DNA of 64,000 nt from Gemmatimonadales bacterium (GCA_035759745.1 DASTUF010000068.1:20935-84934); one strand, 5' to 3'. Counted from the stretch's first letter, positions 21,934-49,742 are shown. The notes: a model not told the origin generated them from the letters alone. Made by a program: numbers and translations.

Positions 21934-22669
21934 GAAGCAAGACGATGCACCGCTGGAACGGGTGATGGCGCTGGTGCGCGACCTGCGGGTCCGCTGCAGC
22001 TGGGACCGGGTGCAGACCCGCGAGACGCTGCGACCCTACCTGGTGGAGGAAGTGCTCGAGCTGGACCATGCCATCGCCGAGGCGGACCGCGACGCGATGC
22101 CGGACGAACTGGGCGACATGCTGCTTCACCTGGCCTGGCAGCTGGTGCTGGCGGAGGAGGATGGGCTGGGCACGCCGGATGCCCTGGCCGACCGGGTTGT
22201 CCGCAAGATGCAGCGGCGGCATCCCCACCTCTTCGACCTGGGGCCCCCTGAACCCTGGGAAGTGCTCAAGCGGAGGGAACGCACCGGCGGGACGCTGGAT
22301 GGATTGCCGCGCGAGCTCCCCGCCCTGCGCGCGGCCATGCGGCTGCAGGAGCGCGCGGCGTCGGTGGGCTTCGACTGGCCTGACGTGAACGGGCCGCAGG
22401 AAAAGGTGCGCGAAGAAGCCGACGAAGTCACCGAGGCCCTCACCGGCGGCGAGATAGAAGCAATACAGGAAGAGGTGGGCGACCTGCTGTTCGCGGCGGT
22501 GAACCTCGCGCGGAAAGCGAGTGTGGACCCGACCGCCGCGCTCGAGGGCGCCAACCGGAAGTTCACCGAGCGATTCCGTGAGATGGAGGCGCTGGCCGCC
22601 GAGCGCGGCATCGTGCTCCACGAAGCCGGCCTGGAAGCGCTGGACCGGCTGTGGGACGAGATCAAGTAG
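21932..22669 (+). CDS. mazG: Nucleoside triphosphate pyrophosphohydrolase MazG
   Basis: Internal ATG (MKQDDAPLERVMALVRDLRVRCSWDRVQTRETLRPYLVEEVLEL...) of track ORF 21785..22669. Tandem MazG domains with EExGDLLF-type motifs (DELGDMLLHL, EEVGDLLFAAVNL). Confidence 0.85.
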   Translation: MKQDDAPLERVMALVRDLRVRCSWDRVQTRETLRPYLVEEVLELDHAIAEADRDAMPDELGDMLLHLAWQLVLAEEDGLGTPDALADRVVRKMQRRHPHLFDLGPPEPWEVLKRRERTGGTLDGLPRELPALRAAMRLQERAASVGFDWPDVNGPQEKVREEADEVTEALTGGEIEAIQEEVGDLLFAAVNLARKASVDPTAALEGANRKFTERFREMEALAAERGIVLHEAGLEALDRLWDEIK

Positions 22670-22673
22670 GAAA

Positions 22674-22692
22674 GGGCGGACCGCGTCCGCCC
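22674..22692. terminator. GC-rich hairpin between the convergent mazG and asnS genes (possible bidirectional terminator)
   Basis: gggcgga-ccgcg-tccgccc is a 7-bp perfect stem with a 5-nt loop. It is flanked by aaa on the left and att on the right, and sits 4 nt after the mazG stop and 1 nt before the asnS stop. Confidence 0.5.
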
Positions 22693-22693
22693 A

Positions 22694-23989
22694 TTACGGC
22701 GTGAGGCGATGAATCTGCCGCGGAAAGGCGATCGCCTCGCGGATGTGGGGGAGGCCGCAGATCCAGGCCACGGTGCGCTCGATCCCCAGCCCGAATCCCG
22801 AGTGGACGAAAGTGCCGTACTTCCGGAGGTCGAGATACCATCCATAGGCGGCGGGGTCGAGCCCCTGCTCCTTGATCCGCGCCAGCAGCCGGTCGTGGTC
22901 GTCCTCGCGCTGTGAGCCGCCGATGATCTCGCCATACCCTTCGGGCGCGAGGCAGTCGTTGTTGAGCACGGTCCGCGCATCGTCAGGGTTTTCCTTCATG
23001 TAGAACGCCTTGACCTCGCGCGGATAGTTGTAGACAAATACCGGGCGGTCGAATTCCTTCGCCAGCAGCGTTTCGTCGTCACCACCCAGGTCCTTGCCCC
23101 AGGTAATGTCGGAGCCCAGCTGGTTGAGCCGGGCCACTGCATCGGTGTAGGAAATCCGGGGGAACGGCCCCGTGACCCGTTCCAGCGGCGCCGTGTCGCG
23201 CTCCAGCTCGGCGAGTTCCGCCTTGCGTTCGGTGAGGGCTCGTCCCACGACGTAGCTTACGAACTCCTCCTGCAACTGCATGTTGGCGTCGGAGTCATTG
23301 AAGGCCACCTCCGGCTCCACCATCCAGAACTCGGTCAGGTGGCGCCGGGTCTTCGACTTCTCGGCCCGGAAAGTCGGCCCGAAGCAGTACACCTGGCCCA
23401 GTGCCGCGGCCGCTGCTTCGACGTATAGCTGCCCGGTCTGGGCCAGGTAGGCAGTGCCCAGATCGAAGTACTCGGTGGCAAAGAGATTGCCCGCTTCCTC
23501 GCCTATCGCTCCGGTCAGGATCGGGGTGTCCACCAGGGTGAAGTCGCGCGAAAAGAAGAAGTCGCGGATCGCCTGCACGACCTCATTCCGCACCTTGGCG
23601 ATGGCCACCTGGCGGCGGCTCCGGAGCCAGAGGTGTCTATGCTCGAAGAGGAAGGACGTCCCATGTTCCTTGGGGGAGATAGGGAACTCGGCACTGGCCC
23701 CCAGGATCACCAGGTCCCGGATTCCGAGCTCGACGCCGCCGGGCGAACGGGCATCGGCCCGCACCTCGCCGGTCAACTCGACGCTGGTCTCCTGGGTGAT
23801 ACCGCCGAAGCGCTCCCACACTTCCGGCGCCACTTCCTTCTGCGAGACGACACCCTGCAGATAGCCCGAGCCGTCGCGGATGACAATGAACGCCACCTTT
23901 CCGCTGGAACGGGTGGTGACTGCCCAGCCGCGCACCGTGACCACCTGCCCCACTCGGCCGCCCAGCTCGCCGATCCTCGCATGCGTCAT
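22694..23989 (-). CDS. asnS: Asparagine--tRNA ligase
   Basis: 431 aa. Class II motifs; FRAEKSKTRRHLTEFWMVEPE and GFGLGIERTV are typical of AsnRS. Confidence 0.95.
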   Translation of the reverse strand: MTHARIGELGGRVGQVVTVRGWAVTTRSSGKVAFIVIRDGSGYLQGVVSQKEVAPEVWERFGGITQETSVELTGEVRADARSPGGVELGIRDLVILGASAEFPISPKEHGTSFLFEHRHLWLRSRRQVAIAKVRNEVVQAIRDFFFSRDFTLVDTPILTGAIGEEAGNLFATEYFDLGTAYLAQTGQLYVEAAAAALGQVYCFGPTFRAEKSKTRRHLTEFWMVEPEVAFNDSDANMQLQEEFVSYVVGRALTERKAELAELERDTAPLERVTGPFPRISYTDAVARLNQLGSDITWGKDLGGDDETLLAKEFDRPVFVYNYPREVKAFYMKENPDDARTVLNNDCLAPEGYGEIIGGSQREDDHDRLLARIKEQGLDPAAYGWYLDLRKYGTFVHSGFGLGIERTVAWICGLPHIREAIAFPRQIHRLTP

Positions 23990-23998
23990 GCTACATCC

Positions 23999-25081
23999 AT
24001 GGTGCTGAAGGGTTTGCGCTACGGAGGGTGGAGTCTAGCGGTGCTCGCCATGAGCGTCAACGCGAGCTGCATCAATTTCAGCCCGCCTCCACCGCCGGTG
24101 AGCGAGGAGTACTCCGCCGGGGCACCGGCCGAACAGTGGATGCTGCGAACCGGTCGCGGCATCACCGGCCCGATCGCGGCCACTGGCTCGATGGCGCTGG
24201 TGGCCTCCGCCAACCGCAACCTCGAGGCGGTGAGCCTCGCCACCGGCGAGTCGCTCTGGAACCGGCGCCTGCCGGGTGCGCTGATGGGCGGCGTGCTGGT
24301 GCGCAACTCGATGCTCTACGCCGGCACCGGCCGGCCCGACGGCCGGGTGGATGCGATCGACTTTCGGGGCCGCCGGATCTGGCGCGCCCGTTCGGGTGAG
24401 GTCACCGCCCCGCTCGCGGCTGCGGCCGACATGATCATCGCGCTCAACCGGGACGGATACGCGGTGGCGCTCAACGCCGCTACCGGGAAGATCCGGTGGC
24501 GGCGAGCAGTTGGCCGGGCCCGGGCTCCGGCCATCGAAAGCGAAGGCGCCATCGTGGTCACCACCCTGGACTCGCTCTTCCAGCTCGATTTCGAGGCCGG
24601 GCGGGTGCTGGCCCGGCGGCCGGCACCCGGTGTCGTCCTGGGCGGATGGATCCCGGCCGGCGGAATGCTGGTGGCAGGGATGGCCGATACCGGCGTGGTG
24701 GCGATCGATCCACGCACGCTGGAGACGCTGTGGAGGGTGCGGACCGACGCGCCGGTCATCGGCGACCTGGCCGCCGAAGGCGACACCATCTGGGCCGCGT
24801 CACGCATCGGGACCATCTACCGGCTGGTGCTGGGAGAAGGAGCACCCAACGTTACGACGGTGGCCAGGCTGGAGCGTTCGCTCACGTCCGGCGTCTCGCG
24901 AATGGGCAACTTGCTGCTGGTGGGTAGTGCCGACGGCCGTATTCACGCGCTGGCCGATAACGGCGAGGAGCGCTGGCGGCTCCGGGTGTGGCCCCCGGCC
25001 GACGTCACGCCGGTGGCGGTCGAGGGCGGGGTGCTGGCGGCGGGCGGCGATGGCGATGTCCACTTCTTTCGCGGCGAGTGA
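23999..25081 (+). CDS. PQQ-like beta-propeller repeat protein (BamB-like fold), probably exported
   Basis: Start taken at the ATG at 23999 (MVLKGLRYGGWSLAVLAMSVNASC...). Repeated ...A.DA.TG...W... blades (ATGESLWNRRL, ATGKIRWRR, RTLETLWRV, GEERWRLRV). The upstream part of track ORF 23633..25081 is antisense to asnS. Confidence 0.7.
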   Translation: MVLKGLRYGGWSLAVLAMSVNASCINFSPPPPPVSEEYSAGAPAEQWMLRTGRGITGPIAATGSMALVASANRNLEAVSLATGESLWNRRLPGALMGGVLVRNSMLYAGTGRPDGRVDAIDFRGRRIWRARSGEVTAPLAAAADMIIALNRDGYAVALNAATGKIRWRRAVGRARAPAIESEGAIVVTTLDSLFQLDFEAGRVLARRPAPGVVLGGWIPAGGMLVAGMADTGVVAIDPRTLETLWRVRTDAPVIGDLAAEGDTIWAASRIGTIYRLVLGEGAPNVTTVARLERSLTSGVSRMGNLLLVGSADGRIHALADNGEERWRLRVWPPADVTPVAVEGGVLAAGGDGDVHFFRGE

Positions 25082-25085
25082 GCCG

Positions 25086-25553
25086 ATGCGCGCACTGCTT
25101 CTCTGCATCATGCTGGCGCTCGTGGCCCAGCCGCTCGCGACCAAGCCCCTCGCCGCGCAGCGGAGCAGCCCGGCGCCGATCAAGTTCGGCAAGTGGGCGC
25201 TGCTGGCGGGGGCGATCGGGCTCAACTTTGCGGCGTCGCGCGAGCACGAGCGGGCTGACTCGGTGTTCGGCGACCTGACGGCGCGCTGCGTGCCGGACCC
25301 GACGCTGTGCGACGTGGGAGACGACGGCTCGTATCTGGACGCCGAGAGCGAGTTCCTCTACCAGACCTCGCTGGCGTACGACCGCCGCGCCCGCAACTTC
25401 CTCTTCGGAGGGCAGGGCGCGCTGCTGGGTGCGGCGGTGCTGTTCGTCTGGGAGTTCAGCCGGCCCAAGGACGACCCGGAGAACATTCCCTTCGAGCCGA
25501 CGGTGAACTTTCTGCCGCACTCGACGGAGATTGGGGTGCGGGTGGCGTGGTAA
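25086..25553 (+). CDS. Hypothetical exported/membrane protein
   Basis: In-frame ATG inside track ORF 24510..25553 gives MRALLLCIMLALVAQPLATKPLAAQ... (signal peptide) plus a C-proximal hydrophobic segment GALLGAAVLFVW. 155 aa. No family recognised. Confidence 0.5.
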   Translation: MRALLLCIMLALVAQPLATKPLAAQRSSPAPIKFGKWALLAGAIGLNFAASREHERADSVFGDLTARCVPDPTLCDVGDDGSYLDAESEFLYQTSLAYDRRARNFLFGGQGALLGAAVLFVWEFSRPKDDPENIPFEPTVNFLPHSTEIGVRVAW

Positions 25554-25555
25554 CT

Positions 25556-25627
25556 AGTGGGGAGTGGGAAGGAAGTGGGAAGTGGAACGGCCCCTCACCA
25601 CTTCCCACTTCCAACTTGCTACTTGCG
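25556..25627. repeat. G-rich GGGAAGTGG-type intergenic repeat, copy 1, containing a perfect 15-bp hairpin
   Basis: agtggggagtgggaaggaagtgggaagtgg aacggcccctca ccacttcccacttcc aacttgc. The stem 25571-25585 / 25598-25612 is perfectly complementary, with a 12-nt loop. It lies between two convergent genes. Confidence 0.75.
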
Positions 25628-25987
25628 ATGCCCTATCGCCCCGCCCGCCAGCCCGGCGATCACCGACGCGATCGTCGCCACGCCGATGGTCGGACCCGGG
25701 ACGTCGCCCATGATGGCGCTGAGGCCCGAGCCGAGGAAGCCGCTCACCCCGCCGGCGATGGCGCCGCCGCTGGCCGACGCCATCCGGGCCGGCCGCATCG
25801 CTCCCTTGCTGAACATGAGCCCGGTGAACGCCGCGATCAGTGATCCCACGATCGGGTAGCTGCTCTGGATCGCGGGCATGAAGTGCCCCAGCACCACCAT
25901 CGCCACCTGCAACAGCGTACCAACCAGCGTCGCCTTCGTGAGCGCGCCCTGCCCAAGGGCGCTCTGACCTGCCATTCGGCTCTCCAT
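25619..25987 (-). CDS. Small Gly/Ala-rich integral membrane protein, unknown function
   Basis: Start taken at MESRMAGQSALGQGALTKATLVGTLLQVAMVVLGHF...; three or four hydrophobic segments. The first 21 codons of track ORF 25619..26050 are encoded by the G-rich repeat and are probably not translated. Confidence 0.5.
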   Translation of the reverse strand: MESRMAGQSALGQGALTKATLVGTLLQVAMVVLGHFMPAIQSSYPIVGSLIAAFTGLMFSKGAMRPARMASASGGAIAGGVSGFLGSGLSAIMGDVPGPTIGVATIASVIAGLAGGAIGHRK

Positions 25988-26010
25988 GGATCTCTCCGCG
26001 GTGAAAGATG

Positions 26011-26043
26011 ATCCCCACTCCCCACTTCCCACTCCCCACTTGG
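26011..26043. repeat. G-rich repeat, copy 2 (single arm; G-rich on the minus strand)
   Basis: The plus strand reads tccccactccccacttcccactccccacttgg. The minus strand therefore reads CCAAGTGGGGAGTGGGAAGTGGGGAGTGGGGA, with four G3-4 tracts. Coordinates are +/-2 nt (see the rejected notes). Confidence 0.65.
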
Positions 26044-26046
26044 CTG

Positions 26047-28116
26047 TCATCCGGTCCTGAAGAAATCCACCGCCCGCGGGTATCGCGCAAGGACCCGGGC
26101 CCGGAGCGGCTGGTTGGCGCTGCGCTGCAACGCGCTATCGCCCGCCAGGATCCGCTCCGCCTGTACCCGGGCTTCGGCCAGCAGGTCCTCGTCGTCCGGA
26201 AGCCGAGCCTGGCGCAACTCGAAGCCTCCTGACTGACGGGCCCCGATGAGGTCGCCCATCCCGCGCTCCCGCAGGTCCAGCTCCGCGATCTCGAAACCGT
26301 CATCGGTGGCGGCGAAGGCGCGCAGCCGCTCCGCCGGACGGTCGCCGGTCATCAGGATGCAGAAGCTCTCGTTGCCGCCTCGCCCCACTCGGCCTCGCAG
26401 CTGGTGCAGCTGCGCCAGCCCGAAGCGCTCGGGATGCTCGATCAGCATGACGGTGGCATTGGGCACGTCGATGCCCACTTCGATGACCGTCGTCGCCACC
26501 AGCACGTGGACCCCGCCCTCGCGGAACGCACGCATGGTGCGGTCGCGCTCATCGGTCTTGAGCCTGCCGTGCACCAGCCCCACCGTGAGCCCGGGCCAGC
26601 GCTGCGCCAGTTCCTCGGCCATGGTCGTGGCCGCCCGCAGATCCGCCCGCTCCGACTCCTCGATGACTGGCAGCACCACGTACGCCTGCCGTCCCGTCTC
26701 GCATTGCTCCCGCATGAAGTCGAGCACCCGCTCGCGCTGCGCCGCGGTCCGGAGCGCGGTGCGGACGCTGCCCCGTCCGGGAGGCCGCTGGCGCAGCACC
26801 GAAACATCGAGGTCGCCGTAGCGGGTGAGCGCGAGCGACCGCGGAATCGGCGTGGCGCTGAGCAGCAGGACGTCGGGCGCTGCTCCCTTCCCCACCAGCG
26901 CCGAGCGCTGCTCCACACCGAAGCGGTGCTGCTCATCGATGATCACCAGGCCCAGCCTCCGGAACTCGACGCTCTCCTGCACCAGCGCATGGGTACCGAC
27001 CACGATGCGTGCGGCACCCTCGCGAATGCGCCGACGGGCGGCGCTCTTGGAGGAAGCGGTGAGCTTGCCCAGCAGCACCTCGGGCTTGATGCGGAGCGGC
27101 TGGAGCAACCGCTCCACGGTGCGCGCGTGTTGCTCCGACAGCAGCTCGGTGGGCGCCATGAGCGCCGCCTGATGATCGTTCTCCAGTGCCAGCAGCATGG
27201 CGAAGAGCGCGACCACGGTCTTGCCGGTGCCCACGTCGCCCATCAGCAGGCGATGCATCCGCCGCTCGGACGTCATGTCGCCCACGATCTCGTTGAGGGC
27301 GGTGCGCTGGTCACGGGTGAGCGTCCAGGGCAGCGACGCGCCCAGTGCGGTCGTGAGCTCCCCCGGCGGCTGATACAAGATGCCGCCGGAACGGGTGCGG
27401 CGGGCCAGCGCCCGGGCTCGCGACAGGGTGAGCTGAAGATCGAAGAGCTCGTCGAAGGCGAGTCGCCGCCGGCCATGCTCCGCCTCTTCCTGCGTGGCCG
27501 GCCGATGCACCAGGCGGTACGCCTCGGCCAGTCCCGGAAGGCGCAGTGATTGCCGAACAGATGCAGGCAGCTCGTCAGTCACCAGCGCGAGCGCCTGGTC
27601 GAGGTGGCGATCCACCAGCCCTCGAATCGCGCGGTGGCTCAGTCCCTCGGTGGCGGGATACACCGGCAGCACCCGGCCCGGCTCCAGCGGTGCCTCGGCG
27701 CCCGCGTCCGACAGGATCACATATTCGCGCGGCGCCATCTGCTTGCCGTGGTAGTGGCGGATCGGCCCCGACACCAGCAGCGTCTGTCCCACCGCGATGC
27801 TGCGGTCGAGAAACGCCTGACCCGGCCAGACGCACTCGAGCGCCCCGCTGGCGTCGCGGATCACTGCGCTGAAGATGCGAAGGCCCTTGCGGGTGGGCGT
27901 CACCGCCTTGGTGATGACGATGCCGGCGCAAGCAACCTCATCGCCCACCCGCACCCGTGCGAGTGGGGTGACGCTGGAGGCATCGACGTAGCGGTGCGGG
28001 ATGTGGCGGAGCAGATCGCCGGCGGTGTGCACACCCAGCCGGGAGAAGGCGTCAGCTCGGCGCTCGCCCACGCCCTTGAGGAACTTGACCGGGGTATCCA
28101 GCCGGAGCGGCGGCAT
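26047..28116 (-). CDS. recG: ATP-dependent DNA helicase RecG
   Basis: Start taken at MPPLRLDTPVKFLKGVGERRADAFSRLGV... (internal ATG of track ORF 26047..28257). Wedge domain, helicase motif I GDVGTGKT, DEQHRFGV, and a C-terminal TRG-type region. Confidence 0.95.
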   Translation of the reverse strand: MPPLRLDTPVKFLKGVGERRADAFSRLGVHTAGDLLRHIPHRYVDASSVTPLARVRVGDEVACAGIVITKAVTPTRKGLRIFSAVIRDASGALECVWPGQAFLDRSIAVGQTLLVSGPIRHYHGKQMAPREYVILSDAGAEAPLEPGRVLPVYPATEGLSHRAIRGLVDRHLDQALALVTDELPASVRQSLRLPGLAEAYRLVHRPATQEEAEHGRRRLAFDELFDLQLTLSRARALARRTRSGGILYQPPGELTTALGASLPWTLTRDQRTALNEIVGDMTSERRMHRLLMGDVGTGKTVVALFAMLLALENDHQAALMAPTELLSEQHARTVERLLQPLRIKPEVLLGKLTASSKSAARRRIREGAARIVVGTHALVQESVEFRRLGLVIIDEQHRFGVEQRSALVGKGAAPDVLLLSATPIPRSLALTRYGDLDVSVLRQRPPGRGSVRTALRTAAQRERVLDFMREQCETGRQAYVVLPVIEESERADLRAATTMAEELAQRWPGLTVGLVHGRLKTDERDRTMRAFREGGVHVLVATTVIEVGIDVPNATVMLIEHPERFGLAQLHQLRGRVGRGGNESFCILMTGDRPAERLRAFAATDDGFEIAELDLRERGMGDLIGARQSGGFELRQARLPDDEDLLAEARVQAERILAGDSALQRSANQPLRARVLARYPRAVDFFRTG

Positions 28117-28129
28117 GGTCCGGCGTCGC

Positions 28130-29056
28130 TCAGGCGCCGTCGAGGAGTTGTTCGGCGTAGCGGGCGGCGTCGAAGGGCGCCAGGTCGTCGAGCGACTCGC
28201 CGGTGCCGACGAAGCGAATGGGAAGTCCCAGTTCGGTGCGGAGTGCCGCCACTGCACCGCCTCGCGCGCTGCCGTCGAGCTTGGTGACGATCACGCCGGT
28301 GGGGGAGACCGCCGCCTGGAAGAGCCGACCCTGCTGCACCGCGTTCTGGCCCACCGTGCCGTCGAGCACCAGCAGCGTCTCCTGCGGTGCGCCGGGGAGC
28401 CGGCGAGCGATGACGCGCACCACCTTGCGGAGCTCGTCCATCAGCCCTTCCTGGGTGTGGAGCCGCCCGGCGGTGTCGATCAGCACCGTATCGACGCCCC
28501 GTGCCACCGCGGCGTCGATGGCGTCGAACGCCACCGCTGCCGGGTCGCCGCCCGGTGCACCTGCCACCGCGGGCACGCCGAGCCGTTCGGCCCAGATCTC
28601 CAGCTGGCGAATGGCGCCTGCGCGATAGGTGTCGGCCGCCGCCAGCAGCACCGTGCGTCCCTCCTGCTGCTGGAGCCGCCGGGCCAGCTTGGCCACCGTG
28701 GTGGTCTTGCCCACACCGTTCACGCCCACGATCAGGTACACACTCGGCCCCGACTCGGCGCGCTCCAGTCCGCCAGGGTTGCCGGGCGATGACAGGAGGT
28801 CGCTGAGCCGAGTCACCAGGGCGGCGCGGAGGTCGACATCGGTCTTGACCTTGCCGTCACGGATCGCATTCTCGAGCGCCTGCACCAGCGCCATCGTGGC
28901 GGGCACGCCGAAATCGGCCTCCAGCAGCAGACGCTCGATCTCCTCGAGCTCATCGCCCTTGAGCCCGCGCACCAGCGCACCCACATCGGTGAGCGCAAAG
29001 CGCTTGATGCGCTGCCAGACGGAGAGCTGCTCGGAAGTGATTCTGAAAGAGGTCAC
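28130..29056 (-). CDS. ftsY: Signal recognition particle receptor FtsY (short N-terminus, NG domain)
   Basis: Motifs GVNGVGKTTTVAKLA, DTAGRLH and TKLDGSARGG. Start uncertain: the GTG at 29054-29056 (VTSFRITSEQLSVWQRIKRF...) is preferred. An ATG at 29120-29122 lies in the loop of the upstream palindrome and would add a repeat-encoded HFPLPTSHFPLPT peptide. Confidence 0.85.
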   Translation of the reverse strand: MTSFRITSEQLSVWQRIKRFALTDVGALVRGLKGDELEEIERLLLEADFGVPATMALVQALENAIRDGKVKTDVDLRAALVTRLSDLLSSPGNPGGLERAESGPSVYLIVGVNGVGKTTTVAKLARRLQQQEGRTVLLAAADTYRAGAIRQLEIWAERLGVPAVAGAPGGDPAAVAFDAIDAAVARGVDTVLIDTAGRLHTQEGLMDELRKVVRVIARRLPGAPQETLLVLDGTVGQNAVQQGRLFQAAVSPTGVIVTKLDGSARGGAVAALRTELGLPIRFVGTGESLDDLAPFDAARYAEQLLDGA

Positions 29057-29063
29057 GACATCA

Positions 29064-29154
29064 GTGGGGAGAGGGAAGTGGGAAGTGGGGAGTGGGAAGT
29101 GGGTGGAAGAATATAATTCCATCCACTCCCCACTCCCCACTTTCCACTTCCCAC
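29064..29154. repeat. G-rich repeat, copy 3: a ~90-bp imperfect palindrome (two ~40-nt arms around an AT-rich centre)
   Basis: gtggggagagggaagtgggaagtggggagtgggaagtgggtggaa GAATATAA ttccatccactccccactccccactttccacttcccac. The inner 22 nt of the arms pair at 20 of 22 positions. It fills the whole gap between the upstream gene's stop (29155) and ftsY. Confidence 0.8.
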
Positions 29155-30957
29155 TCAGCGAAGCCCCATCCTACGCCGCCACCACCATTCCACCGCAAGG
29201 GCGGCGAGCGCCAGGCCGAAGAGCCAGAACTGCTCCCGCACCGATTCGCGAGGCGATGGCCTCGGCGCGCGGGCGGCGCGAGCGGCGATGGTGACCGGCC
29301 GCGGCAGGTACTCGCTGGAAAACGTCTCGACCGCCACCACCCCGGTGCCGCCCTCGCCCAGGCGATAGCGGTACTCCCCCGGCGGGAGCAGCACCTCGGC
29401 GCGGCCGGCGCCGTCGAAGCGCAGGGTGTCGGCTCGGCTCGAGTCTCCAAAGCTCCAGACCAGCGGCGCATCGCGCGGACTACCCTGCCCGGCCCACTCG
29501 AACACCAGCGGCCGGCCGCGCTCCACCACCGGTCTCGGCACGCGGGCGACGCCCCGCACCGAGTCAGTGCCGGCCAGCAGCCAGGTGGTGGTTGCCGCCA
29601 CCCACGCGCGATACGCGTCCTCGCTGGCACCTCCGCGAAAGGCCCAGCGCCAGAACCCGTCCGCCGCGACCAGCGCACGCCGACGCCGGCCGTCGTCGCG
29701 AACAGTAACCACCGGGCGTTCCGCGCCACGCCGCCGCTCCTGGCCCTGCAGCACCACCACGTCTCCCTCGACGGGCTGGATCGGGGTGATCCTGGTGGCA
29801 GGCGGAAATGAGTCGAGCGGAAGACCCAGGAAGGCGGACGCGACCGGCGACACTTCGGCTGCGCCCAGGTACCAGTCGCCCGGCAGCAGCGCCTCGCCGT
29901 TCTCGCCACTGGGCCAGAGCCAGAGTCCGCGGGCACTGCTGCCTTCTGCCCAGCTGCCCTGCCGTCCCTTGAGCACCAGCAGGTCAGCGCCGCGCGCACT
30001 TCGCCGAACGGCTGCCTCGTCCACCGGCGCCAGCGATTCCATGGACCGCCACTGGTTGCGCTCCAGCTGCACGTATCCGCGCACCGGCAACTGCGCCACG
30101 TCGCGCAGGGCACGATAGAGTGTGCGCGCGTCCCAGTCGCCGGGAGAGGCGATGAGCACCACGCCAGGCGATTCCGTGACGATTACGCGATGGAGGCGCA
30201 CGTCGGTGGCCGGCTCCGCGTCCGCCGCACCGGTGCGCCGCAGCGTGAGGACATGCTCTCCCGCCGAGAGGGCGCCCGAAGCCAGCGCAATCCGCGCGCG
30301 GCCGGAGCCACCCTGGTCCACGGCGGCGCGGCCGCGGGCGAGCACCCGTTCGCCCAGGGCCGCTTCGATCGGGATGCTGGTGGTATCGCCGCTGTGAAAT
30401 CGCCGGACATCGATCTCCAGCACGATCGAGTCGCCGGCGGTTACGCGATCGGGGCCCGAGACCAGGGTCAGCGCGTCGTCGGCAACGCTGTCGCGGGGAA
30501 AGACGCGAACAGTGACGCGATCGACCAGGTCGGCGGGAAGGTCTCGCGCGTCCTCGAGCTCGCCATCGGTGAGCACCTCCACCGGTCGGTCGGACGCCGC
30601 CACGGCAACCAGCGCAGGACGCAGCAGCGAGCGGCCGAGGGTAGGCACCGAATCGCCCGGCTGGGCGCCGCCGTCGCCGAAGAACATCACTTCGCCAGTG
30701 GCGGCCGCGGAGTCCCGGGCCGTGGCCCACTGCCCGCCGGCGGCCTGCATCGAGAGCGAGCCGTCGAGCAGCACCAGCGGCGTCAGCCGTTCAGCCGGCG
30801 TGGGACAGGAGATGTTGAAGACGAGGAGAAGGAGCAGGGCCCACGCGAGCGCGCGGGCGATGAGCGGAACGCCGGCTCGGGGGCCGGCGCGCTCGAAGTA
30901 GAGATACGTGACTGCCGCGAGCGCGAGCCCGAGCAGTGCCGCCAGCAGGATCAGCAT
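29155..30957 (-). CDS. Hypothetical membrane protein (N-terminal double-TM region, large extracytoplasmic part, C-terminal TM anchor)
   Basis: 600 aa. MLILLAALLGLALAAVTYLYF...ALAWALLLLLVFNI at the N-terminus and WLFGLALAALAVEWWWRRR at the C-terminus. This is reminiscent of BatA-like N-terminal domains, but the family is not established. Confidence 0.55.
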   Translation of the reverse strand: MLILLAALLGLALAAVTYLYFERAGPRAGVPLIARALAWALLLLLVFNISCPTPAERLTPLVLLDGSLSMQAAGGQWATARDSAAATGEVMFFGDGGAQPGDSVPTLGRSLLRPALVAVAASDRPVEVLTDGELEDARDLPADLVDRVTVRVFPRDSVADDALTLVSGPDRVTAGDSIVLEIDVRRFHSGDTTSIPIEAALGERVLARGRAAVDQGGSGRARIALASGALSAGEHVLTLRRTGAADAEPATDVRLHRVIVTESPGVVLIASPGDWDARTLYRALRDVAQLPVRGYVQLERNQWRSMESLAPVDEAAVRRSARGADLLVLKGRQGSWAEGSSARGLWLWPSGENGEALLPGDWYLGAAEVSPVASAFLGLPLDSFPPATRITPIQPVEGDVVVLQGQERRRGAERPVVTVRDDGRRRRALVAADGFWRWAFRGGASEDAYRAWVAATTTWLLAGTDSVRGVARVPRPVVERGRPLVFEWAGQGSPRDAPLVWSFGDSSRADTLRFDGAGRAEVLLPPGEYRYRLGEGGTGVVAVETFSSEYLPRPVTIAARAARAPRPSPRESVREQFWLFGLALAALAVEWWWRRRMGLR

Positions 30958-30989
30958 GCTCTTGAGCTACGGCCTCGCTGCCAGGCGTT

Positions 30990-32252
30990 TCAGGTCCGGC
31001 TCGCCGCCTGTGCCACGAGGGCGGGCTGGGCAGTGTCCGGCGCCGGCGACCCATCCAGCAGCCGCTGCAGCACCTCGCGCTCGGCCTCGAACGCGCCCCG
31101 CTTCGACTTCTCGACCGGAGCGCCGTTGCCGAGGTCCACCCGGCGCGAATCCTTGGCCACACCATTGACCCGGAACTCGTAGTGGAGGTGCGGCCCGCTG
31201 GCTAGGCCCGTGGATCCTACTTTGCCTATCTGCTGCCCCTGGGTCACCCGCGCGCCGACCCGGGTCTGGATCCGGCTCAGGTGGGCGTAGCGGGTGGTGA
31301 TGCCATTGCGGTGGCGGATTTCCACCATGTTGCCGTAGCCGCCGTTGCGGCCAGCGCGGATCACGGTGCCGTCGCCCGCGGCCATCACCGGCGTGCCGGT
31401 GTTGGCGGCGTAATCGGTGCCCTCGTGCTTCCGGGTCCGGCCCAGCACCGGGTGGAACCGCGCCCGGGAGAAGTTGGACGAGATCCGGCGGAACTCCACG
31501 GGCGCACGCAGGAACGCGCGCTTCAGGGAATTGCCCTCGTCATCGAAGAAGTGGCCGTCAAAGCGGTAGGCCGGCAGGTCGCGCCCGTTGATGCTCAGCT
31601 CGCTGGCCAGCACCCGGCCGAACCGCACATCGCCTTCCTCCGACACCAGCCGCTCCATCACGACGTTGAAATGGTCGCCCGTGCGAGTGTCGCGAGTGAA
31701 GTCCACGGCCCACTGGTATACCTCGGCCAGGGCCCACGCGAGGTGTTCGCGCGCGCCGCCGCCCAGGATCGAATCGCCGACCTGGCGATCGAGAGCCTCA
31801 TAGAGCGAGTGGTTGATAGTGCCCGAGACGGTGAACACCTGGGGCTCCCAGGCGATGGTCTCGACTTCAGTGTCCCATCCGCTCGCTGCCCGCACCATCA
31901 GCACCCGCTGTTCCGGGCTGGTCCGCACCGTCATGCGGTCGGGGATGGAGTCGGCGATGGGCTTCCGGAAATTGAACACCAGCCCTGCCCGGAGCCGCCG
32001 GGGGTCGAGCGCATCGGCGAGGCCGCTGAGATCAGCGGCGATGATGCCATTGCGTCCCAGCAATTCCGAGAGCGTCTCGCCGCGATGCAGCGTATCGGCT
32101 GATTCCACGTGGGTTGGCGGCGGAGGCGGCGGAGCCTCGGCGACGTGCACTACTTCGCGCACGCGCGGCCATGGCCAATTGCCCGACAATGAGAACATCG
32201 CGGCAGCGGCAACGACGGCCCCCGCCACCAGGATCCGGACCCGTGGCATCAA
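30990..32252 (-). CDS. M23-family peptidoglycan metalloendopeptidase
   Basis: 420 aa. Signal/TM segment, then HEGTDYAA...GYGNMVEIRH...HLS...GSTGLASGPHLHYE, the M23 zinc motifs. Overlaps the ftsZ stop by 4 nt. Confidence 0.85.
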   Translation of the reverse strand: MMPRVRILVAGAVVAAAAMFSLSGNWPWPRVREVVHVAEAPPPPPPTHVESADTLHRGETLSELLGRNGIIAADLSGLADALDPRRLRAGLVFNFRKPIADSIPDRMTVRTSPEQRVLMVRAASGWDTEVETIAWEPQVFTVSGTINHSLYEALDRQVGDSILGGGAREHLAWALAEVYQWAVDFTRDTRTGDHFNVVMERLVSEEGDVRFGRVLASELSINGRDLPAYRFDGHFFDDEGNSLKRAFLRAPVEFRRISSNFSRARFHPVLGRTRKHEGTDYAANTGTPVMAAGDGTVIRAGRNGGYGNMVEIRHRNGITTRYAHLSRIQTRVGARVTQGQQIGKVGSTGLASGPHLHYEFRVNGVAKDSRRVDLGNGAPVEKSKRGAFEAEREVLQRLLDGSPAPDTAQPALVAQAASRT

Positions 32253-33445
32253 TCCATCTGCCTGCGGATGAAGGTGGGAATTTCCATCTCGGGCATCTCG
32301 TGCGAAGTCGTGGAAGGAGTTACGCCGCCAGCCGGTGTGGACATCGGTGGGGCCTGCCGGGCCACGTTGCGCGCCGGAACTGGCGTCGGCGTGGTGATCA
32401 CCGGCTGCGAAGCACGCTTCGTGCCAGGGAACGGCAGAACACTGGAGCCCGACGGACGCATCTGCGGCGTGTCGCTGCCGGTGACGATGCGGTCGAATCC
32501 GGTGGCGATGACAGTGACCCGTACCTCGCCGTGCATGGCGGGGTCGCGGCCGGCGCCGAAGATGATCTCGGCCTCATCGCCCACGGCGTCGTGGATGATG
32601 TCATTGATCTGGGTGACCTCGCCCAGGGTGAGGTCGTCACCGCCGATGATGTTGATCAGCACGCCGGTGGCGCCGGTGATCGAGACGTTGTCGAGCAGCG
32701 GGCTCGAGATGGCCTGCTGGGCCGCCTCCAGCGCGCGGGTCTCGCCCCGGCCGATGCCGGTGCCCATCAGCGCCGCGCCGCCGTTCTGCATGACGGTCCG
32801 CACGTCGGCGAAGTCGACGTTGATGATGCCGGTGGCGGTGATCAGGCTGGCAATGCCCTGAGTGGCGTGCAGCAGCACTTCATCGGCCTTCTTGAGCGCA
32901 TCCTGGAAGGGGATGCCCTTCCCAACCACCGCGAGCAGCCGCTCGTTGGGCACCACGATCATGGTGTCCACGCTCTTCCGCAGCTCGCTGATGCCGGTCT
33001 CGGCCTGGCGCATCCGCTTCCGTCCCTCGAACAGGAACGGCTTGGTGACGATGCCCACGGTGAGGGCCCCGGCCTCGCGCGCCATCTGGGCGATGATCGG
33101 CGCCGCACCGGTGCCAGTGCCGCCGCCCATGCCGCAGGTCACGAACACCATGTCGGCGCCGGTGATGTGCGGCAGGACCTCATCCCGGTTCTCGTCGATC
33201 GCCTGGCGGCCGATCTCGGGCCGGGCCCCTGCGCCCAGGCCGCGGGTCAGCTTCTTGCCGATCTGGACCTTCACGTCGGAGCGGGACGTGACCAGGGCCT
33301 GGGAGTCGGTGTTCACCGAGATGAACTCGACCCCGGTGAGCCCGTCCTCGATCATGCGATTCACTGCGTTGCCGCCGCCGCCGCCGACGCCGACGACCTT
33401 CATCCGCGCGGTCTGCGCGCCACTTTCTTCGAGCTCAAATATCAT
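32249..33445 (-). CDS. ftsZ: Cell division GTPase FtsZ
   Basis: 398 aa. Tubulin signature GGGTGTGAAPIIA, plus NTDSQAL and the C-terminal peptide EIPTFIRRQMD. Confidence 0.97.
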   Translation of the reverse strand: MIFELEESGAQTARMKVVGVGGGGGNAVNRMIEDGLTGVEFISVNTDSQALVTSRSDVKVQIGKKLTRGLGAGARPEIGRQAIDENRDEVLPHITGADMVFVTCGMGGGTGTGAAPIIAQMAREAGALTVGIVTKPFLFEGRKRMRQAETGISELRKSVDTMIVVPNERLLAVVGKGIPFQDALKKADEVLLHATQGIASLITATGIINVDFADVRTVMQNGGAALMGTGIGRGETRALEAAQQAISSPLLDNVSITGATGVLINIIGGDDLTLGEVTQINDIIHDAVGDEAEIIFGAGRDPAMHGEVRVTVIATGFDRIVTGSDTPQMRPSGSSVLPFPGTKRASQPVITTPTPVPARNVARQAPPMSTPAGGVTPSTTSHEMPEMEIPTFIRRQMD

Positions 33446-47591: not shown

Positions 47592-47608
47592 GGCAGGTCC
47601 GGGATGCT

Positions 47609-47643
47609 GGAAACACAACACCCCGTCCGGCAGGGACGGGGTG
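47609..47643 (-). terminator. Intrinsic-terminator-like hairpin downstream of tRNA-Asp, immediately upstream of rsmH
   Basis: The minus strand reads CACCCCGTCC-CTGCC-GGACGGGGTG followed by TTGTGTTTCC. This is a 10-bp perfect GC-rich stem with a 5-nt loop and a U-rich tail. Confidence 0.6.
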
Positions 47644-47662
47644 AGGCGTTCATCGAGATGAA

Positions 47663-47737
47663 CGGGGCTGACGGGGCTCGAACCCGCGACCTCCGCAGTG
47701 ACAGTGCGGCACTCTAACCAAGCTGAGCTACAGCCCC
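47663..47737 (-). tRNA. tRNA-Asp (anticodon GTC)
   Basis: Hand-folded: acceptor GGGGCTG/CAGCCCC, D arm GCTC..GAGT, anticodon stem CCGCA/TGCGG with loop CTGTCAC, T arm GCGGG-TTCGAGC-CCCGT, discriminator G. 75 nt. No encoded CCA. Confidence 0.93.
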
Positions 47738-47799
47738 AGCAAACAGGCGCGCAATGTAACTGCCGGGCGCGGGGGGCGGTAGCCCCCGCACCCCGGCGT

Positions 47800-49545: not shown

Positions 49546-49598
49546 TCCCTGTCCTCCAAGGCGTGGAGGGCCGAACCCGGCCCGATTGACTCGCTGCA

Positions 49599-49673
49599 TG
49601 GGCGAAGAGGGATTCGAACCCCCGACATCCTGCGTGTAAGGCAGGCGCTCTGAACCAGCTGAGCTATTCGCCC
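49599..49673 (-). tRNA. tRNA-Val (anticodon TAC)
   Basis: Hand-folded: acceptor GGGCGAA/TTCGCCC, anticodon stem CCTGC/GCAGG with loop CTTACAC, T arm GGGGG-TTCGAAT-CCCTC, discriminator A. 75 nt. No encoded CCA. Confidence 0.93.
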
Positions 49674-49742
49674 GTCTGGCGCCTCATCCTCACTGAAATT
49701 ACCCCAGGATGCAGGCTCCGTGCCGTGGTCCGTATCACGCTG

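Follow-up and report, generated by a model that had tools for sequence, protein, structure and literature searches.

Three intergenic gaps within 3.6 kb of a Gemmatimonadales genome (~70% G+C) carry heptanucleotide simple-sequence repeats (SSRs) with the unit GGGRAGT, which are not REP or MITE elements. The lineage was assigned through FtsY, whose relatives bear the name Gemmatimonadales. In the window, i.e., the whole 64-kb stretch of DNA analysed, Tandem Repeats Finder (TRF) returned head-to-tail arrays of period 7 at all three loci, where the earlier note had placed GGGAAGT/GGGGAGT units. The pattern GGGRAGTGGG was found exactly 10 times (0.54 ± 0.70 expected from shuffles), and two GGGRAGT units with at most two mismatches were found 18 times (1.61 expected), which bears out the reality of the family. 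Nine of the ten exact matches fall within the three gaps. The remaining one (39523) is a lone intragenic 10-mer, and no further GGGRAGT array was detected in the window by exact and mismatch pattern searches, as had been claimed.

The arrays abut the stop codons of the upstream gene or genes, and at loci 1 and 3 they form convergent pairs, the G-rich arm first and the C-rich arm second, which fold into very stable hairpins. The gene context described before (two converging genes; recG and then a small membrane gene; a membrane-protein gene and then ftsY) and the spurious HFPLPT and WGVGSGEWG reading frames were also recovered. Two earlier suggestions had to be abandoned. A REP/MITE-like element does not fit copies without a fixed length, without terminal inverted repeats and target duplication, and without common flanks. 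Nor do the arrays lack a named family, since they fit the heptanucleotide SSRs, the cyanobacterial STRR repeats and, most closely, the G-rich heptamers known from Xanthomonas and Nostoc (PMC4692102).

The three arrays and their quadruplex potential

Locus 1 takes up the whole 65-nt gap between two convergent stop codons. Its G-rich array (25556–25585, plus strand; GGGGAGT GGGAAGG AAGT GGGAAGT GG, TRF period 7) begins 3 nt past the TAA stop of a 147-aa gene (25110–25553, plus strand), the orthologue of which is called at 151–171 aa in relatives. The C-rich inverted array (25598–25617 on the plus strand; CCACTTC × 2.9, found by TRF and by the inverted-repeat search) stops 1 nt short of the TAG (25619–25621) of a small membrane protein gene (122 aa; 25619–25987, minus strand), which is bordered 5′ by locus 2 and 3′ by locus 1. 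The exact 122-aa protein was found on 14 metagenomic contigs. The perfect 15-bp hairpin reported for 25556–25627 is present as a core at 25571–25612 (25571–25585 paired with 25598–25612, 12-nt loop), and the extended fold spans 25556–25623. The predicted RNA fold reached −44.0 kcal/mol (z −4.5) on the plus strand and −34.4 (z −2.5) on the minus strand, and the DNA fold −19.5 (z −3.2); G4-aware folding predicted a G-quadruplex (G4) in neither arm.

The longest inverted repeat of the whole window is locus 3 (29063–29156), previously noted as a palindrome of about 90 bp at 29064–29154. Its arms (29069–29108 and 29117–29156) are 40 nt each, 90% complementary and separated by an 8-nt spacer. The first arm (TRF 29063–29103) carries on the plus strand the six tracts of at least three G that had been counted before, and it is the C-rich 3′ arm when read on the transcribed minus strand; its base lies ~9–13 nt upstream of the GTG start (29056) of ftsY, which encodes the signal recognition particle receptor (28130–29056, minus strand; Pfam SRP54, 1.2e-71). 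The second arm (plus-strand coordinates 29117–29156, TRF 29123–29156) forms the G-rich 5′ arm on the sense (minus) strand, has only three such tracts, and starts at the TGA stop (29155–29157) of a 600-aa membrane-protein gene (29155–30957, minus strand). This protein has two N-terminal hydrophobic segments and one C-terminal one and matched no Pfam family, and its gene is kept at the same position in relatives. Predicted folds were −74.9 kcal/mol (z −9.2) for minus-strand RNA, −80.4 (z −10.2) for plus-strand RNA and −41.5 (z −9.9) for DNA. The loop (29109–29116) is AT-rich (GAATATAA), and a TATAAT string is found in the loop region at 29112–29117 on the plus strand. One metagenomic contig of the same species (L237) begins at 29102, within the palindrome.

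Locus 2 is a single-arm array (26012–26040, minus strand; GGGGAGT GGGAAGT GGGGAGT GGGG, TRF period 7), G-rich on the sense strand and with no complementary partner arm. It lies 6 nt past the stop of recG (689-aa helicase; 26047–28116, minus strand; Pfam RecG_wedge, DEAD, Helicase_C and RecG_dom3_C), the length of which is the same in relatives, and 24 nt ahead of the small membrane gene's ATG (25987). As a hairpin it is unstructured (z +2.0 for RNA, +2.6 for DNA).

It had been claimed that every G-rich arm contains at least four tracts of three or more G. This is true of only two of the five arms, which carry the canonical G3+N1–7 motif: locus 2 (26013–26037, minus strand; G4Hunter −2.40, the highest in the window) and the first arm of locus 3 (29066–29090, plus strand; G4Hunter +2.12). 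The other three arms (two at locus 1, the minus-strand one at locus 3) show just two or three tracts and miss the motif. G4Hunter scoring, which had been proposed as a check, puts the two canonical arms at the top of the window. In G4-aware folding, only 26012–26040 kept a quadruplex in the full-length fold: the minimum-free-energy structure of its sense RNA contains one (−26.4 vs. −20.3), whereas the full sense fold of locus 3 (−75 kcal/mol) is a hairpin without G4. Of the hairpin and G4 potential ascribed to the family, that for hairpins stands at two loci and that for G4 at one locus and one arm elsewhere, and toggling between duplex, hairpin and quadruplex, proposed for each site, may apply at most to 26012–26040 and the locus 3 plus-strand arm. 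Across the window, G4 motifs are depleted (4 vs. 9.4 ± 3.1 expected). G4 as the purpose of the element is not supported, because the units found in the relatives' orthologous gaps are A-rich or mixed and incapable of G4 and because period-7 units with a GGG or CCC tract occur at chance level in the phylum sample (16 of 48, 33% vs. 32%).

Heptamer arrays in related genomes

In the phylum sample, which comprised the window and 84 related loci (541 kb), heptamer arrays occur generally in intergenic DNA. Among tandem repeats scoring at least 50, 26 had period 7, and periods 5, 6 and 8–11 had no more than one each. Period-7 arrays scoring at least 40 were intergenic in 41 cases and coding in 7, with intergenic DNA making up 11.6% of the sample, while repeats of periods 12, 15 and 18 were nearly all coding. 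Autocorrelation peaks were found at lags 7, 14, 21 and 28 in intergenic DNA and only at multiples of 3 in coding DNA. Within one genome, the gaps tend to have a unit in common: arrays from different gaps shared it (at most one mismatch) in 16 of 42 within-locus pairs, against 5.6% between loci. This sharing could alternatively mean active dispersal. Two features lie beyond the present explanation, namely, the genome-specific sharing of units and the purine-first polarity of the arms (62 vs. 24, and 43 vs. 7).

In the closest (sister) species (FtsY 94–95% identical, 83.5% nucleotide identity), gap 1 contains (GGGGAGT)3 with an inverted arm and gap 3 a GTGAGAA/GTGAAAA hairpin; gap 2 is array-free, and the comparison indicates replacement of the whole gap with no clean insertion. 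More distant relatives have hairpins of GTGAACA, GTGAAAA, GTCGTAC, GGTCAAC, GCGGAAC or GATAAGG units in the same gaps, and each time the 3′ arm carries the matching reverse-complement unit. The flanking genes are 80–97% identical and the gaps 33–57%, and lineages with 57–100% FtsY identity repeatedly have arrays at these positions. Since the relatives' gaps often hold hairpins of GTGAAAA, GTGAACA, GTCGTAC and GGTCAAC units, G-richness is not conserved. No array indels were found among 10 sister-species contigs at least 99.8% identical, and 10 contigs of the window's own species showed no differences in gaps 1 and 2.

Upstream of ftsY, 36 co-directional gaps of 20–260 nt were scored among relatives with a measurable gap; 15 showed 7-nt periodicity and 8 a strong hairpin. 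About 18 further relative loci have a gap of less than 20 nt or none, with nothing inside. Among relatives' gaps of at least 60 nt, about half are 7-nt periodic (lag-7 of at least 0.45). On this comparison, the hairpin upstream of ftsY is dispensable. As a test of RNA-level selection, G-U-compatible mismatches were counted, and the excess on the sense strand (29 vs. 17 antisense) was not significant (p = 0.10).

Known heptamer and palindromic repeats

REP and BIME elements of enterobacteria and pseudomonads are post-stop intergenic palindromes, often in inverted pairs and of species-specific sequence, and REP palindromes can guard the transcript of the upstream gene against 3′ exonucleases. 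A REP is a single imperfect palindrome of ~20–40 nt with a conserved 5′ tetranucleotide, mobilised by RAYT transposases. As post-stop intergenic palindromes, the present loci may work in a similar way to REP/BIME; however, they are variable-length tandem 7-nt arrays without the REP signature. The original unit of the cyanobacterial repeat STRR1, which we take to be CCCCAGT, is one base off the CCCCACT found here.

The closest known class is that of the G-rich heptameric SSRs of Xanthomonas and Nostoc (Rehm et al. 2015, PLoS One; PMC4692102), with units GGGAATC in Xanthomonas and GGGGA(C/T)T in Nostoc PCC 7120, together with cyanobacterial STRR. The Xanthomonas/Nostoc heptamers average 28 nt from the upstream ORF, keep the repeat type but vary in length between species, and already include convergent inverted pairs near stop codons and in vitro G4 (PMC4692102). 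The present arrays resemble them in the tandem 7-nt unit with a G3–4 tract, the strongly intergenic position near the ORF upstream, the G-rich strand being sense after the stop, the many convergent stem-loop-capable pairs (70–75 per genome in Xanthomonas), the preference for ~4 units, the change of length and sequence in the same gaps of sister species, and the lack of association with mobile elements or surface genes (PMC4692102). They differ in the Gemmatimonadales host and in the unit GGGRAGT, which is not mentioned in PMC4692102. In addition, the G-rich unit is here one among many heptamers in the same gaps, so G4 potential is no class property in this lineage. GGGRAGT arrays are abundant in Nostocales, and 74 of the 117 stretches returned by a genome scan were cyanobacterial by record title.

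The STRR repeats are likewise intergenic 7-bp tandem units, hairpin-capable within operons; for those between hupS and hupL, transcript stabilisation or translational coupling was proposed (PMC2670836). Their name, however, was coined for heterocystous cyanobacteria, and the present host is not cyanobacterial. The census of long SSRs (5–11 nt) by Mrazek et al. (2007), as summarised in PMC4679880 and PMC4692102, found heptanucleotides to be the most abundant class in prokaryotes, in large high-G+C genomes, and proposed polymerase slippage; the excess of period 7 over 5, 6 and 8–11 seen here agrees with it. In those summaries it is a statistical census, without inverted pairing, orthologous-gap persistence with unit turnover, or arm polarity. 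The TAACTGA direct repeats of marine Beggiatoaceae, which occur in several phyla and are suspected of a post-transcriptional role (MacGregor 2015, PMC4679880), are also heptamers in intergenic DNA whose unit is specific to the genome. Unlike them, nearly all in a single orientation (169 direct sets, one indirect) and just upstream of starts (PMC4679880), two of the three present loci are inverted pairs at stop codons.

Origin and role of the arrays

We moderately favour a reading in which these heptamer SSRs originate by slippage and template switching and act as structured hairpins at gene ends or between cistrons. Replication slippage in 7-nt steps, a published conjecture (Mrazek et al. 2007, as summarised in PMC4679880 and PMC4692102), would lengthen and shorten the arrays, and template switching or gene conversion would keep the arms complementary and homogenise neighbouring gaps; a transposase would not be the mover. 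It should be noted that arm complementarity is no proof of selection, because template switching is by itself able to preserve it. Once transcribed, the hairpins would probably act as folded elements at gene ends or between cistrons that lack a U-tract. Locus 1 may serve as a bidirectional end or insulator for the convergent genes. Between the membrane-protein gene and ftsY, locus 3 may be a 3′-exonuclease barrier or a site of RNase III-type processing, and the base of its stem would bring the stop of the former close to the start of the latter, so that co-translation would not be disrupted. An efficient terminator at this locus is unlikely, since upstream transcription would then no longer reach ftsY and recG, barring an internal promoter. 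Only at the partnerless locus 2 would the stable post-stop fold come from a G-quadruplex instead of a hairpin.

Alternatively, and in our judgement rather doubtfully, the arrays are neutral or selfish, i.e., functionless by-products of a 7-nt slippage bias, palindromic through template switching and tolerated in gaps because a self-folding insert leaves the stop and the next start unseparated. The short, empty ftsY-upstream gap of many relatives, the periodicity of about half of the relatives' ftsY-upstream gaps of at least 60 nt, the free turnover of units between species and the non-significant wobble-pair excess are consistent with this, and no role could be assigned to the equivalent Xanthomonas/Nostoc repeats by Rehm et al. 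(PMC4692102). However, symmetric neutral processes do not predict the strong purine-first polarity, and the position of the arrays against stop codons and their recurrence in the same gaps across lineages speak against it. Moreover, canonical terminators are essentially absent from the window (a T-rich run after 2 of 60 genes; one consensus match vs. 3.3 expected), and relatives often have an ordinary hairpin directly after recG, where the window has the locus 2 array. A switch in which the G-rich arms form DNA or RNA quadruplexes, toggle with hairpin or duplex and regulate transcription or translation is improbable. The canonical motifs and top scores of locus 2 and the locus 3 plus-strand arm, the predicted quadruplex in the locus 2 sense RNA, the start codon 24 nt downstream of it, the G-arm-first polarity, which lets G4 form ahead of transcription of the C-rich arm, and the in vitro G4 of related heptamer oligonucleotides (PMC4692102) point to it. 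Nevertheless, neither arm of locus 1 nor the sense-strand one of locus 3 has the motif, the hairpin wins widely where a partner arm is present, relatives' orthologous units are incapable of G4, G3/C3 tracts are at chance frequency, and the window is poor in G4 motifs overall.

Transposase-driven spread of a REP/BIME (RAYT-mobilised) or MITE-type hairpin to post-stop sites seems very improbable, in spite of the inverted-pair hairpins directly past stop codons, the genome-specific sequence common to several gaps, the different sequences in orthologous gaps of other species and the three copies close together. These copies differ in length and unit order and have only the 7-nt unit in common; there are no array-independent terminal inverted repeats and no target-site duplication, gap 2 of the sister species points to whole-gap replacement, and the remaining 60 kb hold no further copy. 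The constancy of period 7 across unrelated units indicates a length-dependent rather than a sequence-specific process, and viral contigs seldom carry the pattern (24 stretches among 2.9 million). Short tandem repeats near gene starts are the classic substrate of phase variation, and locus 2 does sit in a 5′ untranslated region. Contingency loci, whose hypermutable copy number would switch the neighbouring genes on and off, are nevertheless barely credible here: copy number is constant in the 10 own-species and 10 sister-species contigs, the neighbours are housekeeping genes (ftsY, recG), and the arrays lie after stop codons, not in promoters or reading frames. Rehm et al. were likewise negative on this point for the Xanthomonas/Nostoc repeats (PMC4692102).

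For the slippage-derived gene-end hairpins that we favour, the kind of repeat has itself already been described in bacteria; Gemmatimonadales are a new lineage for it, and GGGRAGT is a new unit.

Tandem heptamers at the end of a cell-division cluster

Based on reading of the sequence and on Tandem Repeats Finder (TRF), tandem units of GGGRAGT form at three loci, which are packed within 3.6 kb and occur nowhere else in the 64 kb. Locus 1 consists of a first array (25556-25585) and an inverted array (25598-25617), both listed on the plus strand. Locus 2 is a single array (26012-26040) that is G-rich on the minus strand, with the G-rich sequence GGGGAGTGGGAAGTGGGGAGTGGGG. Locus 3 includes a first array (29063-29103) and an inverted one (29123-29156). 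TRF assigned period 7 to each array, with 2.9-5.9 unit copies per array. The copies are 62, 29 and 94 nt long for loci 1, 2 and 3, with 20-41 nt per arm (one array of an inverted pair) and a varying order of units. Loci 1 and 3 are convergent array pairs, and locus 2 lacks any palindrome.

The pattern GGGRAGTGGG was matched 10 times in the window, versus 0.54 ± 0.70 times in dinucleotide-preserving shuffles, and two units with up to two mismatches were matched 18 times versus 1.61. Among the 17 window gaps of at least 30 nt, 7-nt periodicity was found in three, namely those holding the loci; identity at lag 7 was 0.47-0.62 there and did not exceed 0.34 in the remaining gaps. All three loci are intergenic and consist of head-to-tail 7-nt units, at least two to three in number and above chance expectation, which is what defines heptanucleotide simple sequence repeats. 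The sequence, TRF and the shuffle counts show that the three-locus 7-nt repeat described in the earlier note is real and its description largely correct. No further copy exists in the rest of the window, where the sole exact match to GGGRAGTGGG is a lone 10-mer within a gene (position 39523). The third site is indeed a full palindrome, with two 40-nt arms that are 90% complementary across an 8-nt spacer; no inverted repeat in the 64 kb is longer. The spurious peptide reading frames named in that note are present.

According to Pfam and a codon-usage gene caller, the loci sit at the end of a minus-strand cell-division cluster. The gene order is ftsA, ftsZ, an M23 peptidase gene, the gene of a 600-aa membrane protein (29155-30957, minus strand), locus 3, ftsY (28130-29056, minus), recG (26047-28116, minus), locus 2, the gene of a 122-aa membrane protein (25619-25987, minus), locus 1 and a convergent gene for 147 aa (25110-25553). 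Stop codons lie 3, 1, 6 and 0 nt from the arrays. Locus 1 takes up all of the 65 nt that separate two convergent stop codons; locus 2 begins 6 nt past the recG stop codon and ends 24 nt ahead of the next ATG; and locus 3 starts at the TGA of the 600-aa gene, with its stem base about 9-13 nt before the ftsY GTG. The 600-aa protein has two N-terminal hydrophobic segments and one at the C-terminus, has no Pfam family match, and keeps its place between ftsY and the M23 peptidase gene in all Gemmatimonadales relatives that were examined. An exact-protein look-up found the 122-aa protein and returned no record for the AsnRS and FtsY of the window.

Hairpins, quadruplex potential and terminators

On its sense strand, locus 3 has a predicted RNA fold of -74.9 kcal/mol (z -9.2), and the opposite strand reaches -80.4 kcal/mol; the fold of locus 1 reaches -44.0 kcal/mol (z -4.5). 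At locus 2, shuffled sequence folds more strongly than the actual RNA (z +2.0). DNA folding parameters left the ranking of the three loci unchanged.

The earlier note treated every G-rich arm as a canonical G-quadruplex (G4) motif. The motif (G3+N1-7)x3 G3+ is present in two of the five G-rich arms, at 26013-26037 (minus) and 29066-29090 (plus), and is absent from both arms of locus 1 and from the sense-strand arm of locus 3; the generalization over all arms is not supported. The top G4Hunter scores of the window (-2.40, +2.12 and -1.92) all fall in the three loci, and the window as a whole is depleted of canonical motifs (4, versus 9.4 ± 3.1 predicted by a first-order Markov model). When G4 formation was allowed in folding, it entered the minimum-energy structure only in locus 2 and in the plus-strand arm of locus 3 taken alone; when that arm had its partner, the hairpin beat the G4 outright.

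An intrinsic terminator is a G+C-rich hairpin followed by a U-tract. None of the three loci is followed by a T-run, so none has the form of a canonical intrinsic terminator. T-rich runs follow 2 of the 60 called genes in the window, and a consensus terminator scan of the 11 kb from 22000 to 33000 returned one site versus 3.3 expected, which is fewer than in shuffles. Hairpin-plus-U-tract terminators are essentially absent in the window, so gene ends here must be signalled otherwise.

The loop of locus 3 carries a perfect TATAAT on the plus strand (29112-29117), which reads TATATT on the gene strand; no matching -35 element was seen, in a scan that does not cover the promoter types of this phylum. 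At curated thresholds, Rfam found only two tRNAs in the window. The two tRNA genes lie on the minus strand at 47663-47737 and 49599-49673, within longer gaps (47592-47799 and 49429-49742). At permissive thresholds, eukaryotic microRNA-precursor models matched far under their cut-offs (for example, 50.8 versus 100 bits), and this reading was rejected as a generic long-hairpin artefact.

Unit turnover in orthologous gaps and a phylum-wide period of seven

The best FtsY relatives carry names within Gemmatimonadales. In the closest relative (hereafter the sister species), FtsY is 94-95% identical, nucleotide identity is 83.5% across 12.3 kb, and the gene order is unchanged; genes flanking the loci are 80-97% identical and the gaps 33-57%. 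Gap 1 of the sister species (the equivalent of the gap holding locus 1; gaps 2 and 3 likewise) contains (GGGGAGT)3 and an imperfect inverted arm. Gap 2 lacks heptamers and has a small G+C-rich hairpin only. In gap 3, a hairpin at the same place is built from GTGAGAA, GTGAAAA and GGTGAAT, with TTTCAC-type units in the opposite arm. Relatives at 76-77% FtsY identity form hairpins in the same three gaps from (GTCGTAC)n, (CCCCATG)3, (GGTCAAC)n and (CTGTCAA)n. Locus 3 retains a GTGGAAA unit, intermediate between the GTGAAAA of relatives and the GTGGGAA of this species, which hints at drift of gap 3 in place.

Another 80 Gemmatimonadota loci came from a metagenome scan with FtsY. In relatives, the gap upstream of ftsY contains GTGAACA, GTGAAAA, GCGGAAC, GATAAGG, GGGAACA and other units, and most of these arrays have a reverse-complement array as the 3' arm. 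For the 36 co-directional cases in which this gap measures 20-260 nt, 7-nt periodicity was seen in 15 and strong folding in 8; in about 18 further loci the gap is shorter than 20 nt or missing. A hairpin follows recG in several relatives, at the place where the window has the locus 2 array. In the test of this position, 30 of 41 loci fold at -20 kcal/mol or below and 6 reach z <= -2, a z from mononucleotide shuffles that discriminates poorly at 70% G+C. An apparent 266-nt insertion within recG in two relatives (L118 and L120) was discarded, being a run of N in a scaffold gap.

Three or four distinct heptamer units lie adjacent in one gap in some relatives (L159, 4841-4994 and 5910-5940; L150, 264-332 and 2140-2343); in one example, GTGAACN is followed by GCGGATA and then by GCTGATG. 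Such side-by-side units form no hairpin. These gaps indicate that pairing is common in this class of arrays and not obligatory.

To place the loci in the phylum, the window was combined with 84 non-redundant related loci (541 kb in total). Among tandem repeats scoring at least 50 in this sample, period 7 accounted for 26, and periods 5, 6 and 8-11 for at most one each. Of the 48 period-7 arrays scoring at least 40, 41 are intergenic and 7 coding, and intergenic DNA makes up 11.6% of the sample; repeats with periods 12, 15 and 18 are nearly all coding. Base autocorrelation peaks at lags 7, 14, 21 and 28 in gaps and at multiples of 3 only in genes. The units contained GGG or CCC in 16 of 48 cases, and random heptamers matched in composition would do so in 32%. 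As this is chance frequency, G4 potential is incidental to the unit of this species and is not a property of the class. Counting units as shared at one mismatch or fewer in any rotation or strand, 16 of 42 array pairs from different gaps of one locus share a unit, compared with 5.6% between different loci. The window obeys this genome-specific pattern, with GGGRAGT in all three gaps.

A pattern scan with one genome per species gave at least 117 stretches. Among the stretches listed, 74 are cyanobacterial by record title and 43 belong to other groups, including Gemmatimonadota, Thermoanaerobaculia and other Acidobacteriota, Chloroflexota and Planctomycetota. Viral contigs carried the pattern in only 24 stretches, which is uninformative on mobility. 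The 127 arrays of the listed matches have a C-rich inverted partner downstream in 43 cases and upstream in 7, and for listed arrays of at least three units the counts are 33 and 1. Among the intergenic hairpins of the unbiased Gemmatimonadota sample, 62 have a purine-rich and 24 a pyrimidine-rich 5' arm (p = 5e-5), with 29 versus 6 in the heptamer-periodic subset. Both hairpins of the window are purine-first. Composite arrays containing GGGRAGT were also seen in Thiobacillus, Anaerolineales, Thermoanaerobaculia, Vicinamibacterales, Chloroflexia, Verrucomicrobia and Streptomyces, hosts of unrelated phyla (L021, 7805-7984; L043, 1982-2002 and flanks; L045, L057, L092, L093 and L109). Their unit drifts along the array (GGTGAGGC to GGGGAGC to GGGGAGT, or CGGAGCC to GGGGAGC to GGGGAGT) at a constant period of 7-8 nt. 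Taken together, the comparison shows that intergenic sequence of this kind recurs throughout the phylum and evolves fast, and that the arrays of the window are one variant of it, specific to their species.

Within species, 10 sister-species contigs with identities of 99.8% or more show no array indels, and gaps 1 and 2 are identical across 10 contigs of the window's own species. It should be noted that the look-up for the latter required an identical small protein and that these contigs hardly differ anywhere between 25491 and about 27800. The identity of these gaps therefore shows only that they are not hypervariable, and purifying selection on them was not accepted as a reading. Strains of the window's species diverge at 24600-25490 by up to 42 mismatches per 200 nt, mainly at third codon positions; this divergence is limited to two plus-strand genes and ends at 25490, which leaves 64 nt to the locus 1 hairpin. 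Several metagenomic contigs are interrupted at 25431, and the start of another (29102) falls within the locus 3 palindrome. The divergence edge and the breaks could mark a recombination boundary beside the hairpin or could be coincidental.

Class, origin and possible role of the arrays

The earlier note's label, a REP/MITE-like element, is not supported for these arrays. The copies of a REP/BIME are all alike, a single imperfect palindrome (about 20-40 nt) that carries a conserved tetranucleotide at its 5' end, and the repeats flank a cognate RAYT (Y1 transposase) gene; here the copies are built of 20-41-nt arms with differing unit order, one has no palindrome, and Pfam found no transposase domain in the 9 ORFs around the loci. 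MITEs have a defined length, terminal inverted repeats, target-site duplications and clean empty sites. The sister-species alignment instead shows whole-gap replacement with neither clean boundaries nor duplications, and copies range from 29 to 94 nt. A phase-variable contingency locus is defined by copy numbers that vary within populations, and the arrays did not differ within either species among 10 + 10 metagenomic contigs, albeit a small sample. These three readings were rejected since each fails at least one testable defining feature. CRISPR was likewise rejected, as spacers are absent and the units are only 7 nt. Sites of SARP-type regulators are spaced heptamers; they were set aside, the heptamers of the window being contiguous.

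The loci are heptanucleotide simple-sequence arrays of an already described class, with a new unit in a new phylum. According to Mrazek et al. (2007), as cited in PMC4679880 and PMC4692102, heptanucleotides are the most abundant prokaryotic repeats of 5-11 nt, and polymerase slippage was proposed. TAACTGA arrays lie upstream of start codons in Beggiatoaceae (MacGregor 2015, PMC4679880). The cyanobacterial STRR are 7-bp units capable of forming a hairpin between hupS and hupL, with proposed roles in stabilizing transcripts or in translational coupling (PMC2670836). The window loci share with them the 7-bp tandem layout and the intergenic hairpin, but the STRR host is a heterocystous cyanobacterium, whereas the FtsY relatives here are Gemmatimonadales.

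The closest match is provided by the intergenic repeats of Rehm et al. (2015), GGGAATC in Xanthomonas and GGGGA(C/T)T in Nostoc (PMC4692102). Their average distance to the upstream ORF is 28 nt, and the sense strand after stop codons is the G-rich one; they form 70-75 convergent inverted pairs per Xanthomonas genome, form G4 in vitro, and had no function found. In sister species they occupy the same gaps, altered in length and sequence, with the single or paired type kept (PMC4692102). The window loci match this description point by point, with a nearby upstream ORF, a G-rich sense strand after the stop codon and convergent pairs; the unit GGGRAGT is absent from PMC4692102, and the phylum differs. 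Described species carry about 90-190 heptamer-repeat copies per genome, spread genome-wide; the 64 kb analysed here contain the three loci. A literature search by heptamer strings returned unrelated eukaryotic papers only.

We suggest that the arrays arise via slippage with a 7-nt step, and that template switching or gene conversion would preserve the complementarity of arms and spread the unit among nearby gaps. Such an origin fits the unit sharing, the residual GTGGAAA and the lack of clean insertion boundaries. As to role, the hairpins are probably gene-end or intercistronic RNA structures without U-tracts. Locus 1 would be a bidirectional end or an insulator. An efficient terminator at locus 3 is unlikely because ftsY directly follows the upstream gene in many relatives; a stability barrier or processing site is more plausible, and translational coupling would be left intact, since the hairpin joins the stop and start codons at its stem base. 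Locus 2 would be the single place where a quadruplex could stand in for the post-recG hairpin of several relatives. The main rival to an RNA role is that the arrays are tolerated by-products devoid of function. It stays alive because the hairpin upstream of ftsY is dispensable in relatives and because the test for selection at the RNA level, which counted 29 wobble pairs in sense versus 17 in antisense, was not significant (p = 0.10).

Taken alone, the loci add a new phylum and a new unit to a repeat class that was already described. This is relevant mainly to annotation, as such arrays give rise to false ORFs and assemblies break at the palindrome. A broader proposal is that hairpin arrays across Gemmatimonadota, and perhaps many phyla, are actively maintained by a previously unknown copying process with a 7-nt step and a polarity, and serve as U-tract-less bidirectional transcript-end or insulator signals; we regard it as improbable. 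If it were true, copying between gaps at a fixed 7-nt step would explain both the genome-specific units and the turnover in orthologous gaps, and the purine-first polarity would be imposed by the copying or kept by selection. The polarity, the 7-nt period and the within-genome sharing of units are the parts worth following up. That 7-nt tandem repeats are overrepresented in bacteria has been on record since 2007, and no cause has found general acceptance. Gemmatimonadota offer many orthologous gaps in which units replace each other and the 7-nt period persists, as do the layout of the hairpin and its purine-first polarity. Comparing such gaps could thus show whether replication mechanics or selection sets the period, and whether the hairpins serve as gene-end signals in a lineage without ordinary terminators.
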